Sequence record: NC_054931.1
Direction: 5' to 3' (one strand)
DNA: 64,000 nucleotides
Source: Escherichia phage T2
Positions 2,484 through 7,937 of this stretch are shown piece after piece (position 1 is the stretch's first letter; each line of letters starts with the position of its first letter). Under the pieces are notes generated by a model. That model saw only the letters and a list, made by a program, of their open reading frames with translations. It was not told the origin of the DNA and did not search any database. Both the position numbers and the translations under genes were made by a program.

Positions 2484-2511
2484 GTTGTTTTCTGTATCAG
2501 TAGTTGATAGT

Positions 2512-2546
2512 TGTATAGTACCATGGAAGAACAGGGATGTAAACAG
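2512..2546 (-). promoter_or_regulatory. T4-type early promoter (-35 GTTTAC, -10 TACTAT)
   Basis: Minus-strand GTTTAC at 2539-2544 with ~18-bp spacer to TACTAT; A-rich upstream; member of the repeated early-promoter family. Confidence 0.5.
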
Positions 2547-2682
2547 TTTTGTGAAAAAATTTTTAAAAAGTTTTAGGGAATTCTAGGGCGGGGAGGGGCA
2601 ATTAAAAGATAGGATAATATATTATAAAGGGTATAAACTAAATGATGCCTAGAGAGGTCTGGAAAGGCCTAGATACCAAAAA

Positions 2683-2715
2683 GCCCCAACCTTTCGGTCG
2701 GGGCTAAGCCTTGCG
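2683..2715 (-). terminator. rho-independent terminator at the end of the tRNA/stable-RNA operon
   Basis: Minus-strand hairpin AGCCCCGACC-GAAA-GGTTGGGGCT followed by TTTT. Confidence 0.6.
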
Positions 2716-2758
2716 GCAACCTTGTCGGGGTTCCACCTGCTAAGGCAAGTGTTTGTAC

Positions 2759-2913
2759 GAAACGCCGGGATTTGAACCCGGTTATTAAGTAGTTGACGCT
2801 ACTCAATATTTTTAAAAGGCCATATCTCGACCATATCCGAACGTTCCGTCAAAAACGCTACTCGGCTTACAGCAAAGATATTTCCTCGAATCGATAATTC
2901 GGTGCGCCGTTTC
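2759..2913 (-). ncRNA. tRNA-like structured stable RNA (candidate counterpart of T4 species 1/2 RNA, rnaC/rnaD)
   Basis: ~155 nt with no ORF; 5-prime and 3-prime ends pair as an acceptor-like stem (GAAACG/CGTTTC); T-arm-like CCGGG-TTCAAAT-CCCGG at the 3-prime end; lies inside the tRNA operon. Confidence 0.35.
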
Positions 2914-3011
2914 TGCTGTGATAGTAAAGAGCCAGAACACAGTAAAACTGTGGGAGGAACTATACTCCAGGGAACATCAGTCCGACGACTTACCGGTAGC
3001 GACCCGGTTTC

Positions 3012-3362
3012 TTAATATTCTTTTAAAGCATCAATCTGTTCACGGCGTTTACGCCATAAATCAATTGCTTCATACGCGGATTCAGCATTTCGAATTAGCC
3101 GGCATTTATGTAAAGACTTGTGATTTTGGTATTGTGTAGATAATGGAATTTTATCTAAAAGGTCTTTACGTTCAAAGTATTCGTAACCATCTAAACCAAA
3201 TGAACGATTTTTGAGAAATTGCCAATGCCTAAATTCGTTTTCGACATAAACATAGTCTGCATGCTGATAAAGCAAATTAATTACACGTTCAGAAATAACA
3301 GTGTCATTATGATTAAAATAGAATGTTAAATCATGAACGACTAAATAAACATTACCTTTCAT
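3012..3362 (-). CDS. hypothetical protein, 116 aa, within the tRNA operon
   Basis: Track ORF between tRNA-Arg and the stable RNA. Confidence 0.45.
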   Translation of the reverse strand: MKGNVYLVVHDLTFYFNHNDTVISERVINLLYQHADYVYVENEFRHWQFLKNRSFGLDGYEYFERKDLLDKIPLSTQYQNHKSLHKCRLIRNAESAYEAIDLWRKRREQIDALKEY

Positions 3363-3370
3363 ATTTTCCT

Positions 3371-3446
3371 CACTTATAATTGGTCGAGGCAGTAGGGATC
3401 GAACCTACGACCCAGGACTTAGAAGGTCCTTGCTCTTCCTTCTGAG
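3371..3446 (-). tRNA. tRNA-Arg (anticodon TCT)
   Basis: Hand-folded cloverleaf; 7-bp acceptor CGAGGCA/TGCCTCG; anticodon loop CTTCTAA; encoded CCA. Confidence 0.8.
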
Positions 3447-3450
3447 CTAT

Positions 3451-3525
3451 GCCTCGTATTTGGCGGACGTGATAGGATTCGAACCTATAACCAATCGCTT
3501 AACAGGCGATCGCTCTGCCATTGAG
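3451..3525 (-). tRNA. tRNA-Asn (anticodon GTT)
   Basis: Hand-folded cloverleaf with all four arms; anticodon loop CTGTTAA; T-loop TTCGAAT; encoded CCA. Confidence 0.7.
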
Positions 3526-3529
3526 CTAC

Positions 3530-3616
3530 ACATCCAAATTGGTGGGGAGTGATGGAGTCGAACCACCCGAGTCGCAATGACAATGAATTTACAGTCCACA
3601 CCGCTACCTCTACGGG
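3530..3616 (-). tRNA. tRNA-Tyr (anticodon GTA), long variable arm
   Basis: 87 nt; acceptor GGGGAGT/ACTCCCC; anticodon loop CTGTAAA; overall layout parallels E. coli tRNA-Tyr; encoded CCA. Confidence 0.65.
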
Positions 3617-3626
3617 ATAACTCCCC

Positions 3627-3701
3627 CAAATTAATTTGGTGGCCCTGGGTGGAATTGAACCACCATCTGGCGATTATGAGTCGCTTGCTTGAACCTTCCA
3701 G
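3627..3701 (-). tRNA. tRNA with CAT anticodon (elongator Met or lysidine-type Ile)
   Basis: Cloverleaf with acceptor GGCCCTG/CAGGGCC; anticodon loop CTCATAA; encoded CCA. Confidence 0.7.
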
Positions 3702-3719
3702 CTACAGGGCCAAATTTTC

Positions 3720-4124
3720 TTATTTTATGTAATATTTATTTAAAAACTTTCTAGCTTGAGTATGGCTAACATTTATAGCGTTTGCATAATTTTTAATAAA
3801 ACCTCGTTCATCCATATTAAAATTTTCTAATATTTTTAATCGTCTAGTTATCTCATCTTTGCTTAAGGTACTTGCATTATTTTTAGAAATTTTTTCTAAG
3901 GACTGTGCCGAGTGTTTTCGACCATTAAAATTAAAATTTTTAGATTTTGGAGGAAATCTATCATTTAGTCTCGCATCTTTTGTATTTTGATTATTAGTTG
4001 CGCAATATATGTTATTTAATGAATATGGTCCTTTATCACCGAAACGGCACATGCAGTATTCATGACCCTTTCTTCCACGCTTATCATATTTTCCCGTTGA
4101 TTTCCACCAATAGCCATTCATCAA
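3720..4124 (-). CDS. putative free-standing HNH-type endonuclease-like protein with C-terminal HTH-like tail
   Basis: 134-aa ORF in the gap between the two tRNA subclusters; N-terminal His/Cys/Asn-rich segment (GHEYCMCRFG...NNIYCATNNQN) resembles an HNH-type fold; C-terminal NYANAINVSHTQARKFL resembles a helix-turn-helix. Confidence 0.4.
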   Translation of the reverse strand: MMNGYWWKSTGKYDKRGRKGHEYCMCRFGDKGPYSLNNIYCATNNQNTKDARLNDRFPPKSKNFNFNGRKHSAQSLEKISKNNASTLSKDEITRRLKILENFNMDERGFIKNYANAINVSHTQARKFLNKYYIK

Positions 4125-4245
4125 AAGTTAAATTCCATTCAATGTTTCTACGTATAGCAGAATTCCGCTGAGAAATATTTTGCATAATCTTCTTTCATCA
4201 CAAATTTCTCTACTTATTCAATACACCGAGCTAAATCAGCAAAAC

Positions 4246-4335
4246 TGGCGGAGGCGATAGGATTTGAACCTATGAGTCGCCGGAGCGACTGCCGGTTTTC
4301 AAGACCGGTGCATTAAACCACTCTGCCACGCCTCC
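4246..4335 (-). tRNA. tRNA-Ser (anticodon TGA), long variable arm
   Basis: Sequence matches recalled T4 tRNA-Ser; anticodon loop CTTGAAA; directly abuts tRNA-Pro (Pro-Ser dimeric precursor as in T4). Confidence 0.85.
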
Positions 4336-4337
4336 AG

Positions 4338-4411
4338 TCTCCATACAAGGATTTGAACCTTGGACCTCCTGATCCCAAATCAGGCGCTCTACCAAACTGA
4401 GCTACACGGAG
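4338..4411 (-). tRNA. tRNA-Pro (anticodon TGG)
   Basis: Cloverleaf; anticodon loop TTTGGGA; CCA not encoded. Confidence 0.8.
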
Positions 4412-4421
4412 TAAATTAAAT

Positions 4422-4495
<74 letters not shown>

Positions 4496-4500
4496 AAATT

Positions 4501-4587
4501 TGGTGCGAGAAGTGGGACTCGAACCCACAAGGAAATCATTCCGCAGCATTTTAAGTGCTGTGCCTTTACCAATTTGACCATTCTCGC
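4501..4587 (-). tRNA. tRNA-Leu (anticodon TAA), long variable arm
   Basis: Matches recalled T4 tRNA-Leu (GCGAGAATGGTCAAATTGGTAAAGGCACAGCACTTAAAATGCTGCGG...); abuts tRNA-Gln. Confidence 0.9.
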
Positions 4588-4588
4588 G

Positions 4589-4661
4589 CTGGGAATAAAG
4601 GACTCGAACCTTTGCATCTAGCAGTCAAAGTTCTATGCCTTACCAACTTGGCTAATTCCCA
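4589..4661 (-). tRNA. tRNA-Gln (anticodon TTG)
   Basis: Cloverleaf; anticodon loop CTTTGAC; CCA not encoded; first gene of subcluster I. Confidence 0.8.
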
Positions 4662-4747
4662 ATTATTAACAAAGGCTCTCAAATAAGAACCCTTGATGAT
4701 AGAGGGTATTAATCAATGCGATATGAGTTAATAATAACAAATATTTC

Positions 4748-5263
4748 TTAAAGCAAATCAACCATTTTAACAGTCGGCAAAACAATTTCTTCTTCGATAT
4801 AAGCAAATTCTACATGTTCAACTACACGCAAGAAATCATATTCATAGTATTCAGAAGCATGACCAAGAATATCAATGAGGCCTTCAAATATCTTATTACC
4901 ATTCACAAAGAATAAGTCAAATACACGTTCTTCATCTTCTTCGGATTTATTACCAAGGTCAACTTCTATATCAAAGACCTTTTTAATGAATTCTGGATAA
5001 AGTTGGTCTGAGAACAGTCCTTCAACCAAATATTCATATATAAAAAGCTCTTGCTCGCTGAACAACCCATTACCACAATAACGGTCAGCTTTAGTGCTAG
5101 AATGACGACTCTTAAACTTCTTCAAAAGATATTTAAATTGTTGGAGCTCATGCTCTTCTACGCCAAACAGTGTTTTGGTTTTATAGTTATCACCATCATT
5201 TTCCCAGGTAGTGACATCAATTACGTAACCCTTAGGAATTGTGCTGCCTAAACGAATATACAT
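4748..5263 (-). CDS. hypothetical early protein, 171 aa, acidic
   Basis: Track ORF; third gene of a short early cassette. Confidence 0.5.
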   Translation of the reverse strand: MYIRLGSTIPKGYVIDVTTWENDGDNYKTKTLFGVEEHELQQFKYLLKKFKSRHSSTKADRYCGNGLFSEQELFIYEYLVEGLFSDQLYPEFIKKVFDIEVDLGNKSEEDEERVFDLFFVNGNKIFEGLIDILGHASEYYEYDFLRVVEHVEFAYIEEEIVLPTVKMVDLL

Positions 5264-5553
5264 TTGTTCACCATATTAATGTAAGTATATTTAATACATT
5301 CAAGACCCAAAGGATTCTTGAAAATATCATATTCAAGAGGACCTTTTTCTGTTTCAATAAAGAAATCAAAATTTACTGTATTAAATTTACGGTCTTCCTT
5401 CACTAATTTAACTTGAGAAGATGAACGGTCAATGTAAACCTTTTCAACTTCAAAACATGTTAAAATGCCATAATCATCAATCAAGGCTTTAGCCGCATCT
5501 TGATCATATTTATATCCATTTTCAACGGACGATACTTTCGCATAAAGAATCAT
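5248..5553 (-). CDS. hypothetical early protein, 101 aa
   Basis: Track ORF; overlaps downstream gene by 16 nt (coupling). Confidence 0.5.
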   Translation of the reverse strand: MILYAKVSSVENGYKYDQDAAKALIDDYGILTCFEVEKVYIDRSSSQVKLVKEDRKFNTVNFDFFIETEKGPLEYDIFKNPLGLECIKYTYINMVNKCIFV

Positions 5554-5555
5554 TA

Positions 5556-5738
5556 TTAACCTTTAGAAATTTTATCCATAACGATAGCGATTAAACCAAT
5601 TAAAAATGCTACTACAAGTGAAAACACATTTTCTGCTGTAGTCAATAATCCGCATATAAATCCAACAAACATTGAAAAACTAAAAGCGGAAGCAGAAATT
5701 GCAATAGCAACATTTCGAATTAATTCACAACGTTTCAT
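5556..5738 (-). CDS. hypothetical small membrane protein, 60 aa (two hydrophobic helices)
   Basis: Track ORF; AIAISASAFSFSMFVGFICGLL and VFSLVVAFLIGLIAIV; first gene after an early promoter; GAGGAGAATAAAATG context. Confidence 0.5.
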   Translation of the reverse strand: MKRCELIRNVAIAISASAFSFSMFVGFICGLLTTAENVFSLVVAFLIGLIAIVMDKISKG

Positions 5739-5757
5739 TTTATTCTCCTCAGTAGTT

Positions 5758-5800
5758 GATAGGGTAATAATATCACCACCCTATCTAAAAGTAAACAGTT
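5758..5800 (-). promoter_or_regulatory. early promoter with overlapping stem-loop (PeSL-like cassette)
   Basis: Minus strand GTTTAC (5791-5796), 18-bp spacer, TATTAT; inverted repeat GATAGGG...CCCTATC (5758-5785) spans the -10 region. Confidence 0.5.
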
Positions 5801-5806
5801 TATAAA

Positions 5807-6115
5807 CTATTTTATTCCGCGTGATGCAATTGTATTCTGCCGTTTAGCACCAGTTTGTTTAAAGTCATGATTGTCGATTTGATCGGTACGAGCAACTCCG
5901 AATGATGATTTGATCTTAGCTTTAGATCCTTTAGTTATAGAAATAAACATCTCGGAAGCCCCTTTCTTAAAGTCCGAGGCGATTACTTCAACGCCGTTCT
6001 TAGCAAGTGACTTCAGAATTGCCTCTGCATACTCATCGTCAAGACTCGTCTGAGTATTAATAACGAATGTCTTTGGCGCAGCCGCTTCATTGATAAATTC
6101 TTTAAATGTTTTCAT
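5807..6115 (-). CDS. internal (head-packaged) protein with capsid targeting sequence
   Basis: 102 aa; N-terminus MKTFKEFINE-A matches T4 CTS consensus MKT(Y/F)(Q/K)EF plus I-x-E prohead protease cleavage motif; located in the IP locus next to 57B. Confidence 0.65.
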   Translation of the reverse strand: MKTFKEFINEAAAPKTFVINTQTSLDDEYAEAILKSLAKNGVEVIASDFKKGASEMFISITKGSKAKIKSSFGVARTDQIDNHDFKQTGAKRQNTIASRGIK

Positions 6116-6129
6116 TTTATTTTCCTAAT

Positions 6130-6165
6130 TAATTTTGATGAGGTAATAGTATCACAACTAAAACC
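6130..6165 (-). promoter_or_regulatory. T4-type early promoter (repeat copy)
   Basis: Minus strand GTTTAC (6159-6164), 18-bp spacer, TACTAT; ~70-bp cassette nearly identical to 6443-6514. Confidence 0.5.
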
Positions 6166-6187
6166 CTATGTAAACAACTTTGTGAAA

Positions 6188-6442
6188 TTATTTTAAATCT
6201 TCTAATCGTTTCTTCATCTTAGAACCGTTCTTAGCGATTTCGCCTGCATCAGAGCATAATGCTAAAAGCGCTTTAACTTTAGTTTGGTCTCCTTTAAAAG
6301 ATGAAGGATCAACAGCAGCAAGTTCTTTAATACGAGAGAAAAGACGCTCAGCTTCAGCTAAAGCCATTCCAAGTTTTACTTCCATACCATGGGAAGATTC
6401 AGTAATAGTAGTTTTTGTAGCAAACTCTTTGAAAGTTTTCAT
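6188..6442 (-). CDS. internal (head-packaged) protein with capsid targeting sequence
   Basis: 84 aa; N-terminus MKTFKEFATKTTITE-S: CTS consensus plus I-T-E cleavage motif; body unrelated to the neighbouring IP gene. Confidence 0.65.
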   Translation of the reverse strand: MKTFKEFATKTTITESSHGMEVKLGMALAEAERLFSRIKELAAVDPSSFKGDQTKVKALLALCSDAGEIAKNGSKMKKRLEDLK

Positions 6443-6463
6443 TTTATTTTCCTAATTAATTTT

Positions 6464-6502
6464 GATGAGATAATAGTATCACTACCTCATCAGTATGTAA
6501 AC
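6464..6502 (-). promoter_or_regulatory. early promoter with overlapping stem-loop (PeSL-like cassette)
   Basis: Minus strand GTTTAC (6497-6502), spacer, TACTAT inside inverted repeat GATGAG...CTCATC (6464-6491). Confidence 0.5.
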
Positions 6503-6514
6503 AACTTTGTGAAA

Positions 6515-7211
<697 letters not shown>

Positions 7212-7212
<1 letters not shown>

Positions 7213-7937
7213 TATAGTACCTTTAGTGTATTTTTAATTTTAGAAAAAAGTTCTTCAATAGAACCATCGTTTGTAATTACTAAATCGCCATCACGAATTG
7301 GCAATCCAGCTTCTGTAATATGTGTATCATTGGATTTTTGACCAGGACGAACTACATGAATTACTGTAGCACCCATCGCCCTAGCCGCATCCATTTCATG
7401 ATCTTGACGGGTATCAGGAACGATATAATAATCATAACCTGAGTTAAATTTATCAAGATAATCTAAAGCAAATAATTTTACCCAGTACATGCGGTCGAAG
7501 TTATTAACAATCAAATCCGTACCTAGGGCTTGCATCAGACGACGGACTGACCATTGATCTTCAATATTATTTATAACGTCAGTAATCTTGTTAAATGCTA
7601 CGAAATTAACTGATTCTTTTCCTTCGTCATCAAAAACAAACACACCTTTAATTGGGCTTTTACCATTAAGATAGCAAAATGCTTGTTCCATAATCGTGAT
7701 TACTTCTAATTTAGTCAGATTTAAATTAGTCTCACGATCATAGTCAATTCCTTCAAACTCTTTACGAGTTAAGCAAGGATAGTCAGTGTTTGCTGCAAAT
7801 ACTCCCCATGCATAAGCCAATGCATCCTTAATAGGACCAGCAAGTTGGTATTTAACTGCAGAATAATTGCTCATGATAAAATCAGCAGTAGTATCTTTTC
7901 CACTACGCTTTACACCACTTAAAAAGATTAGTTTCAT
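7212..7937 (-). CDS. 1: deoxynucleoside monophosphate kinase
   Basis: 241 aa from MKLIFLSGVKRSGKDT (P-loop); same length as T4 gp1; track ORF extends 13 codons upstream. Confidence 0.9.

Follow-up and report, generated by a model that had tools for sequence, protein, structure and literature searches.

What is encoded by the three small open reading frames (ORFs) that precede the tRNA genes of Escherichia phage T2, and do they form a cassette of their own or a part of the tRNA operon? The ORFs lie on the minus strand at positions 4,748 to 5,738 of a 64,000-nucleotide stretch of the T2 sequence (record NC_054931.1), which is the window to which all coordinates refer, and in the direction of transcription they are trna.4, trna.2 and a gene that is here called orf171. 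On comparison of the sequence with related phages, the unit can with high confidence be regarded as the form that the protein-coding leader of T-even tRNA operons takes in T2, and this applies to the identity of the genes as well as to the architecture of the locus: an early promoter of the PE1 type is followed by three translationally coupled genes, then by a MotA-type middle promoter, and finally by the tRNAs (Table 1). The genes as such are already known, as the T2 records MH751506.1 and AP018813.1, to which a 1.9-kb query shows 100% identity, annotate trna.4, trna.2 and orf171, and as trna.4 and trna.2 of T4 were sequenced decades ago.

Table 1. Leader genes, promoters and adjoining tRNA genes in the T2 window
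Feature	Position	Strand	Product or character	Basis
trna.4	5556-5738	minus	60 amino acids (aa), predicted hairpin of two transmembrane segments	phrog_1692, T4 Trna.4 match
trna.2	5248-5553	minus	101 aa, acidic, soluble, isoelectric point (pI) 4.9	phrog_2023, T4 Trna.2 match
orf171 (RB32ORF135c / RB69ORF151c family)	4748-5263	minus	171 aa, acidic, pI 4.6	phrog_2290
Early promoter, PeSL type, T4 PE1 orthologue	5758-5796	minus		promoter scan, fold, alignment to X03016.1 and RB32
Middle MotA-type promoter, T4 PM2 orthologue	4731-4755	minus		column-by-column alignment to X03016.1
Hairpin in the orf171/tRNA-Gln spacer	4670-4695	minus		fold of 4662-4750
tRNA subcluster I (Gln, Leu, Gly, Pro, Ser)	4246-4661	minus		ARAGORN, Rfam, T2 annotation

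Identity and conservation of the three genes

That the three ORFs are real genes follows from their family matches together with the purifying selection that acts on them. The PHROG matches are strong for trna.4 (phrog_1692, E = 2.6e-34), trna.2 (phrog_2023, 2.6e-48) and orf171 (phrog_2290, 1.7e-65), and for all three genes the ratio of nonsynonymous to synonymous divergence (pN/pS) is 0-0.3 between close phages and <0.5 between distant ones. For trna.2 and orf171, the close pairs give values of 0.11-0.30 and the distant pairs again <0.5, and in the comparison of trna.4 between T2 and T4 all four of the four nucleotide differences are synonymous. A preliminary description of this locus had placed three minus-strand ORFs and a promoter cassette here, and the ORF coordinates, the promoter scan and the RNA fold agree with it. 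The tight coupling that it mentioned is evident as well, as a gap of 2 nt separates the stop codon of trna.4 from the ATG of trna.2, and trna.2 and orf171 overlap by 16 nt. A GAGGAG Shine-Dalgarno sequence lies 6 nt 5' of the trna.4 ATG. The products had further been described as free of recognisable motifs, and this statement stands for our own searches, in which the three proteins gave only noise-level matches in the Pfam, NCBIfam and PADLOC libraries and no match in PDB sequence searches with single sequences and profiles, but it does not stand for precomputed assignments, in which Trna.4 and Trna.2 belong to the Pfam families PF26870 and PF27001. An Rfam scan of 2500-6600 detected tRNAs only, with nothing inside 4748-5738, and no papers were found under the PHROG, ORF and Pfam identifiers.

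Trna.4 of T2 is identical to its T4 counterpart NP_049748 in 60 of 60 positions, and the match covers positions 1-60 of the 61 positions of the phrog_1692 profile. The protein was found in 789 phage records, in 428 of these with an identity of at least 99%, all relatives carry PF26870, and trna.4 is the first gene after a PE1-type promoter in T2, T4, RB32 and JS10. The hydropathy profile bears out the two hydrophobic stretches that had been noticed before; they span about residues 9-32 and 37-54 (grand average of hydropathy 1.30) and are parted by the sequence T-T-A-E-N, while both termini are basic. Invariant among relatives are the N-terminal MKRxELIRN, the loop sequence TxEN, the SLVVAFLIG stretch of the second helix, and the basic C-terminus MDKxxKG. 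As basic termini are expected on the inner side according to the positive-inside rule, the sequence suggests that Trna.4 forms a hairpin whose two ends would face the cytoplasm. In record AP018813.1, Trna.4 (5556-5738) is labelled ‘putative Cro/CI-type repressor’, and a 134-aa ORF inside the tRNA cluster (3720-4124) is labelled ‘tail sheath monomer’; both labels look like annotation-transfer errors.

Trna.2 matches T4 NP_049746 in 88 of 91 positions (97%), was found in 802 phage records, and carries PF27001 in 45 of 45 relatives. The T2 protein has 101 residues and its relatives have 95-97, so that it is longer by 4-6 residues, because the TGA stop codon of RB32 reads TGT in T2. This exchange (within 5248-5263) adds the residues C-I-F-V to Trna.2, extends the overlap with orf171 to its 16 nt, and at the same time turns codon 2 of orf171 from N into Y. 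Neither single-sequence nor profile searches of the PDB found a solved relative of Trna.2.

The third gene encodes a protein that is 88% identical to RB32ORF135c, is unrelated to T4 Trna.3, and matches phrog_2290 over residues 1-170. Its family is large: a profile search at E <= 0.001 returned 961 cluster representatives (at 50% identity), all of them single-domain proteins of mostly about 130-190 aa, and tblastn located the family in 553 phage records, mainly of Straboviridae (T4-like phages) of Escherichia, Klebsiella, Aeromonas, Enterobacter and other hosts, together with some jumbo phages. A narrow scan of bacterial genomes with a strict pattern, for which the alignment of closer sequences was used, detected no bacterial relatives. 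All 76 sampled diverse relatives match phrog_2290 and none of them matches a Pfam family. Across these 76 proteins, the residues W20, E21, N22, D23 and D25 (W-E-N-D-x-D) are invariant, G12, F50, G64, N65 and R146 reach a conservation of 96% or higher, and the central helices are unconserved; the family is acidic, with a median pI of 4.4.

AlphaFold modelling (AF2), which the preliminary description had proposed, gave a confident model for orf171 (pLDDT 88, pTM 0.83) and a poor one for Trna.2 (pLDDT 43), and for this reason no fold search was made with Trna.2. In the orf171 model, the invariant motif sits at the tip of a beta-hairpin, and a beta-beta-alpha ... beta core is supplemented by a helical insert. 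Fold searches and PDB profile searches found no solved structural homologue, no similarity to solved anti-defence proteins was detected, and a search of BFVD with the model returned uncharacterised phage proteins only. DNA mimics and p56-like inhibitors were considered for orf171 as well, and the uracil-DNA-glycosylase (UDG) inhibitor p56 of phi29 and VMY22 (PDB 2le2, 8ail) shows a mere resemblance to it. orf171 differs from p56 by a helical insert of roughly 70 residues and by the invariant polar motif, which is not known in p56. p56 targets UDG, and there is no reason to expect such a target in a phage with hydroxymethylcytosine (HMC) DNA.

Promoters and transcription of the unit

The architecture of the locus is defined by its two promoters. 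A promoter scan detected a sigma-70-type early promoter, TTTACT-17-TATTAT with a TG upstream of the -10 element, at 5795..5767; its -35 region GTTTACT lies at 5796-5790 and its TG-extended -10 hexamer TATTAT at 5772-5767, and a 12-bp stem-loop at 5785-5758 includes this hexamer (dG -16 kcal/mol, z -4.5). The original T4 tRNA-region entry, X03016.1, is presumably that of Broida and Abelson (1985). From the -10 region through the ATG, the T2 promoter aligns with the PE1 promoter of that T4 entry, and it aligns with RB32 as well. In X03016.1, PE1 is annotated just 5' of ORF2, ORF3 and ORF4 (trna.4, trna.3 and trna.2) and overlaps a stem-loop that is annotated as ‘potential IpI terminator’, a middle promoter PM2 is annotated between ORF4 and tRNA-Gln, and no terminator is annotated ahead of the tRNAs.

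The early promoter belongs to a class of cassettes known from T4-type phages as PeSL, in which an early promoter is combined with a stem-loop, repeats occur at the borders of variable genes, and homology breaks off inside the cassette (Arbiol et al. 2010, PMC2839356; Comeau et al. 2014, PMC4122927). The T2 locus shows no essential difference from this description. Its promoter meets the consensus TTTACW-N17-TAYWAT that has been given for the T4/PST pair (PMC4122927), and stem-loop as well as repetition at the borders of variable modules are present, with three aligned cassette copies within 5758-6507, one each ahead of trna.4, ip7 and ip5, of which the ip5 copy has an equivalent 13-bp stem that is built from different sequence. 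Similarity between T2 and T4 starts only at 5776, i.e. within the cassette, and similarity between T2 and RB32 runs through it. At the sequence level, a 109-nt direct repeat (6095-6203 and 6422-6530, 89% identical) covers the promoter/stem-loop cassette together with the first codons (MKTFKEF...) of ip7 and ip5, and ahead of trna.4 there is a third copy, which is shorter.

Conservation in T4 and RB32 extends to the 86-nt spacer that separates orf171 from tRNA-Gln. A MotA box, TGCTTTA, occupies 4755-4749, where it shares nucleotides with the stop codon of orf171, and is followed after 12 nt by the -10 hexamer TATTAT at 4736-4731, in agreement with what is established on the MotA box and its spacing in T4 middle promoters. 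These elements align with positions 3161-3167 and 3182-3187 of X03016.1, which are annotated there as the -35 and -10 regions of PM2. No terminator-like site was predicted in 3000-7500. The hairpin in the spacer has a dG of -17 kcal/mol (z -2.4, fold of 4662-4750), but it is not a canonical terminator because no U-run follows it, and on this analysis transcription from the early promoter would be expected to continue across the three ORFs and into tRNA-Gln. The alignment with PE1 and PM2 and the lack of a predicted terminator are the reasons why the three-gene unit is best described as a protein-coding leader that belongs to the tRNA operon, whose tRNA cluster would be served by the early PeSL promoter as well as by the middle promoter. 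The idea that an independent cassette stands between the tRNA operon and the internal-protein locus therefore has to be given up, as the three genes form the leader of the transcription unit to which the tRNAs belong.

Expression data for the T4 orthologues fit to this arrangement. The RNAs of trna.2, trna.3 and trna.4 and all eight tRNAs of T4 have been classed as early, and the Trna.2 and Trna.3 proteins appear early, whereas the Trna.4 protein was not detected (PMC9697503 supplement). By the alignment with PE1 and by these RNA classes, the earlier assignment of the ORFs to an early transcription unit is supported, and the T2 unit is probably transcribed in the first minutes of infection, with at least Trna.2 presumably being translated. 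According to the HIDEN-SEQ preprint supplement, trna.2, trna.3 and trna.4 of T4 tolerate transposon insertion on E. coli K-12. These transposon data cover T4 trna.4 and trna.2, and orf171, which has no T4 counterpart, falls outside them; the dispensability on E. coli K-12 thus applies to the T4 orthologues trna.4 and trna.2.

Modular gene content at the locus

How does the locus differ between related phages? The preliminary description had assumed that T4 holds the endonuclease gene segB and ipI at this position. T4 instead has the order trna.4-trna.3-trna.2 at the same site, and its segB is inside the tRNA cluster. The related claim that the T2 content is different from that of T4 came from an incorrect T4 map and fails for two of the three genes: as described above, Trna.4 and Trna.2 are shared almost or fully unchanged. 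It stands for the third position, as orf171 is present on the T2 side only and trna.3 (about 400 bp) on the T4 side only. A GIY-YIG element such as SegB was also considered for the T2 genes themselves and rejected, as none of the three proteins has a corresponding Pfam or NCBIfam match.

The T4 PE1 unit (X03016.1; NC_000866 72628-73514) occupies the same slot as the T2 unit, between internal-protein gene(s) and tRNA-Gln, and shares with it the early promoter, the Shine-Dalgarno sequence and the middle promoter before tRNA-Gln. T2 differs by having the 516-bp orf171 between trna.2 and the middle promoter and no trna.3, and the upstream half of its cassette follows ip7, as in RB32, whereas it follows ipI in T4. 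In RB32 (NC_008515) the three genes of T2 recur with unchanged order and orientation, together with promoter and spacer, at 92-97% DNA identity. JS10 has the same gene order as RB32 and is far more diverged from T2 (pS about 0.6-0.7). Both phages differ from T2 by also carrying trna.3, and their complete set of four genes has the order trna.4-trna.3-trna.2-orf171. A further combination, trna.4-trna.3-orf171 at about 43-45% identity, was found in two contigs (L015 and L018) of our neighbour survey, which comprised 80 IMG/VR loci with orf171 homologues that form 47 clusters at 50% identity. In this survey, trna.2 is the upstream neighbour of the orf171 homologue in 5 of the 80 loci, all of them closest relatives. 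The synteny comparison, which likewise had been suggested at the outset, therefore shows a locus that is shared by T4-like relatives with variable gene combinations.

The junctions give an idea of how these combinations may have arisen. By homology blocks, T2 lacks RB32 positions 278-674, which correspond to trna.3, and the join is located in a pair of gene joints that resemble each other, AAAGGTGAATAAATG and AGAGGTTAATGATG. T2 looks like a derivative from which trna.3 was lost when two AGGTnAATnATG gene joints of similar sequence recombined. In T4, about 500 bp are absent, i.e. orf171, and yet the final 20-25 nt, which constitute the MotA box of PM2, are retained. In general, module junctions are found at similar joints of Shine-Dalgarno, stop and start sequences between genes and within the PeSL cassette. 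The synonymous divergence between T2 and RB32 climbs along the unit, from 0.07 in trna.4 to 0.16 in trna.2 and 0.28 in orf171, and this suggests for the 3' gene a recombination history unlike that of the 5' genes. As relatives carry the genes in every combination, the genes are independent modules with mosaic histories, and this status argues against one three-protein machine.

Two side observations were made at orf171 homologues. In 15 of the 41 tRNA-bearing loci, the nearest tRNA has a CAU anticodon (survey loci L013-L020, L022-L024, L027, L029, L044 and L086) and is called Met, though it possibly is of the Ile2 type; this recurrence may simply be shared synteny. In Klebsiella and Enterobacter T4-like phages, a homologue of Phage_30_3 (gp30.3/AdfN, anti-DarT) lies about 370 nt 3' of the orf171 homologue, inside the tRNA array (IMG/VR loci L019, L020, L023, L024 and L027, as well as L007 from JIPh_Kp122 and L011 from SonariX).

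Two other minus-strand ORFs, at 3720-4124 and 3012-3362, lie inside or just 3' of the T2 tRNA cluster and occupy the region where T4 has segB, tRNA-Ile, tRNA-Thr and the species 1 and 2 RNAs. T2L has no segB, and ORFs named ‘T2L trna.1’ and ‘T2L trna.2’ have been placed in a T2L region of about 1250 bp that encodes tRNA-Met, -Tyr, -Asn and -Arg (PMC2330249). The ORF at 3720-4124 carries the note ‘trna.1’ in MH751506, and we infer that the ORFs at 3720-4124 and 3012-3362 are the ‘T2L trna.1’ and ‘T2L trna.2’ of that work. On that reading, ‘T2L trna.2’ would differ from the T4-type trna.2 despite the shared name. In mixed infections, homing by T4 SegB replaces the T2 region that holds these two ORFs.

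Possible functions of the leader proteins

What could the three proteins do? As a tentative assignment, to which we give somewhat less than even weight, they may be independent accessory factors of host interaction or counter-defence. Each of them would then act separately, as do the products of the neighbouring gene 57B (Acb1) and of the internal-protein genes; the site of action of Trna.4 would be the inner membrane, and orf171 would bind a ligand or target via its invariant patch of W-E-N-D-x-D, GN and R. This functional class is suggested because the T4 orthologues are early and are dispensable on K-12, because the genes are freely gained and lost and yet are under purifying selection, and because the neighbourhood is rich in counter-defence genes and Trna.2 is associated with the defence-related DRT1. 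The acidity and the invariant polar patch of the orf171 family belong to the same context. With regard to the neighbourhood, gene 57B, which according to the literature encodes the anti-CBASS nuclease Acb1, lies at 6515-6970 on the minus strand, two genes upstream of the three-gene unit, ip7 and ip5 are nearby, and it is the proximity of 57B/Acb1, the internal proteins and, in relatives, the gp30.3/AdfN homologue that makes these surroundings counter-defence-rich. With regard to DRT1, only two proteins of T4, Trna.2 among them, were enriched with wild-type DRT1 over the control with inactive reverse transcriptase (PMC13275509).

Several points weigh against this proposal. The authors of the DRT1 study did not pursue Trna.2, and as T4 is DRT1-sensitive, Trna.2 is not an effective DRT1 inhibitor (PMC13275509). 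The main text of the HIDEN-SEQ preprint names no defence system against which T4 would need trna.2, trna.3 or trna.4. The proteins have no match in PADLOC, Pfam or NCBIfam or among solved anti-defence proteins, and the AF2 model of Trna.2 is unusable. On the side of the architecture, the read-through into the tRNAs is deduced from the absence of a predicted terminator and from the T4 annotation. With all this taken into account, the combined statement of identity, architecture and functional class appears somewhat more probable than not. A more specific version, in which orf171 is a new counter-defence factor tied to tRNA biology (e.g. an inhibitor of tRNA-targeting immune nucleases) or a new binder of nucleotide signals, is improbable.

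What alternatives exist? It could be that orf171 is directed at tRNAs, i.e. that it protects, repairs or modifies the phage tRNAs or inhibits host anticodon nucleases, which would explain its retention beside tRNA genes. In the neighbour survey, a tRNA lies within about 2.1 kb of the orf171 homologue in 20 of the 47 clusters (within 650 nt in 13), and these comprise 10 of the 11 clusters with the T4-type 57B-gp1-gp3 synteny and 10 of the 36 without it; for the non-syntenic clusters, the binomial P is 7.5e-6 if a chance rate of 5% is assumed, a rate that is unmeasured, and the clusters are not phylogenetically independent. All tRNAs in the surveyed loci are co-oriented with the homologue (368/368). 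In annotated phages, the gene resides inside or at the edge of a tRNA array in T2, RB32, JS10, JIPh_Kp122, S13 and SonariX (inside it in the last three), and in the jumbo phage fENko-Kae01 a tRNA-Met is about 900 nt away. However, 26 of the 36 clusters without the synteny lack any tRNA within 2.1 kb, and most of these 26 lack one within 8 kb as well, the homologue of AS-sw is not near a tRNA, and T4 keeps its tRNAs without orf171. The tRNA arrays of large phages are located in hyperplastic regions that are full of unrelated small ORFs, and the adjacency of orf171 may therefore be due to hitch-hiking. In addition, the acidity of the protein argues against direct RNA binding, and its fold was unlike that of any RNA enzyme in the fold searches. 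A tRNA-directed role is thus an unlikely option, and the tRNA adjacency of orf171 is a lead, not a finding. A quite different idea, which had been brought forward in the preliminary description, is that the protein with two transmembrane segments, alone or with partners, is a superinfection-exclusion or host-takeover factor in a T2-specific cassette that replaces SegB and ipI. Exclusion by T4 is known to involve Imm and Sp, two small, early, membrane-located proteins, and Trna.4 as an early, tiny and strongly conserved predicted membrane hairpin is like them in this respect, although it is even smaller; imm and sp, on the other hand, already account for the exclusion that T4 exerts. No similarity between Trna.4 and Imm or Sp was found, as the local Pfam scan gave no match to Trna.4 beyond sub-threshold noise. 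As the gene content is not T2-specific, as SegB never is in this slot, and as insertions into T4 trna.4 are tolerated according to the above-mentioned supplement, we consider this explanation quite improbable.

Do the three proteins constitute one obligate system, composed of a membrane anchor and two soluble partners? The minimal gap, the overlap and the shared promoter would agree with this, but T4 lacks orf171, T2 lacks trna.3, the L015/L018 contigs lack trna.2, and every pairwise combination occurs. Homologues of orf171 moreover exist in hundreds of phages that have neither trna.2 nor trna.4, and the above-described synonymous divergence between T2 and RB32 is unequal among the three genes. 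A single three-protein system was rejected as being largely refuted by these presence/absence patterns, and we regard it as very improbable. It is hardly credible that the ORFs have no protein function at all and that this stretch is transcribed solely as a leader or spacer in the expression of the tRNAs. The dispensability of T4 trna.4 and trna.2 on K-12 and the fact that Trna.4 was undetected in the T4 proteome would be compatible with such a view, but all three genes are under purifying selection, the Trna.2 protein has been detected in two independent studies, and orf171 has a confident fold and invariant residues across 76 diverse relatives.

The start of the T-even tRNA operon can thus be depicted as a leader of interchangeable modules: of the four genes of an RB32-like set, one is missing from T2 and another from T4. 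Within this leader, the orf171 family is a candidate for experiments, as it is widespread, has a confident model that is unlike solved structures, carries an invariant polar motif, and is enriched beside tRNA arrays, in a neighbourhood that has already yielded Acb1 and the anti-restriction internal proteins.

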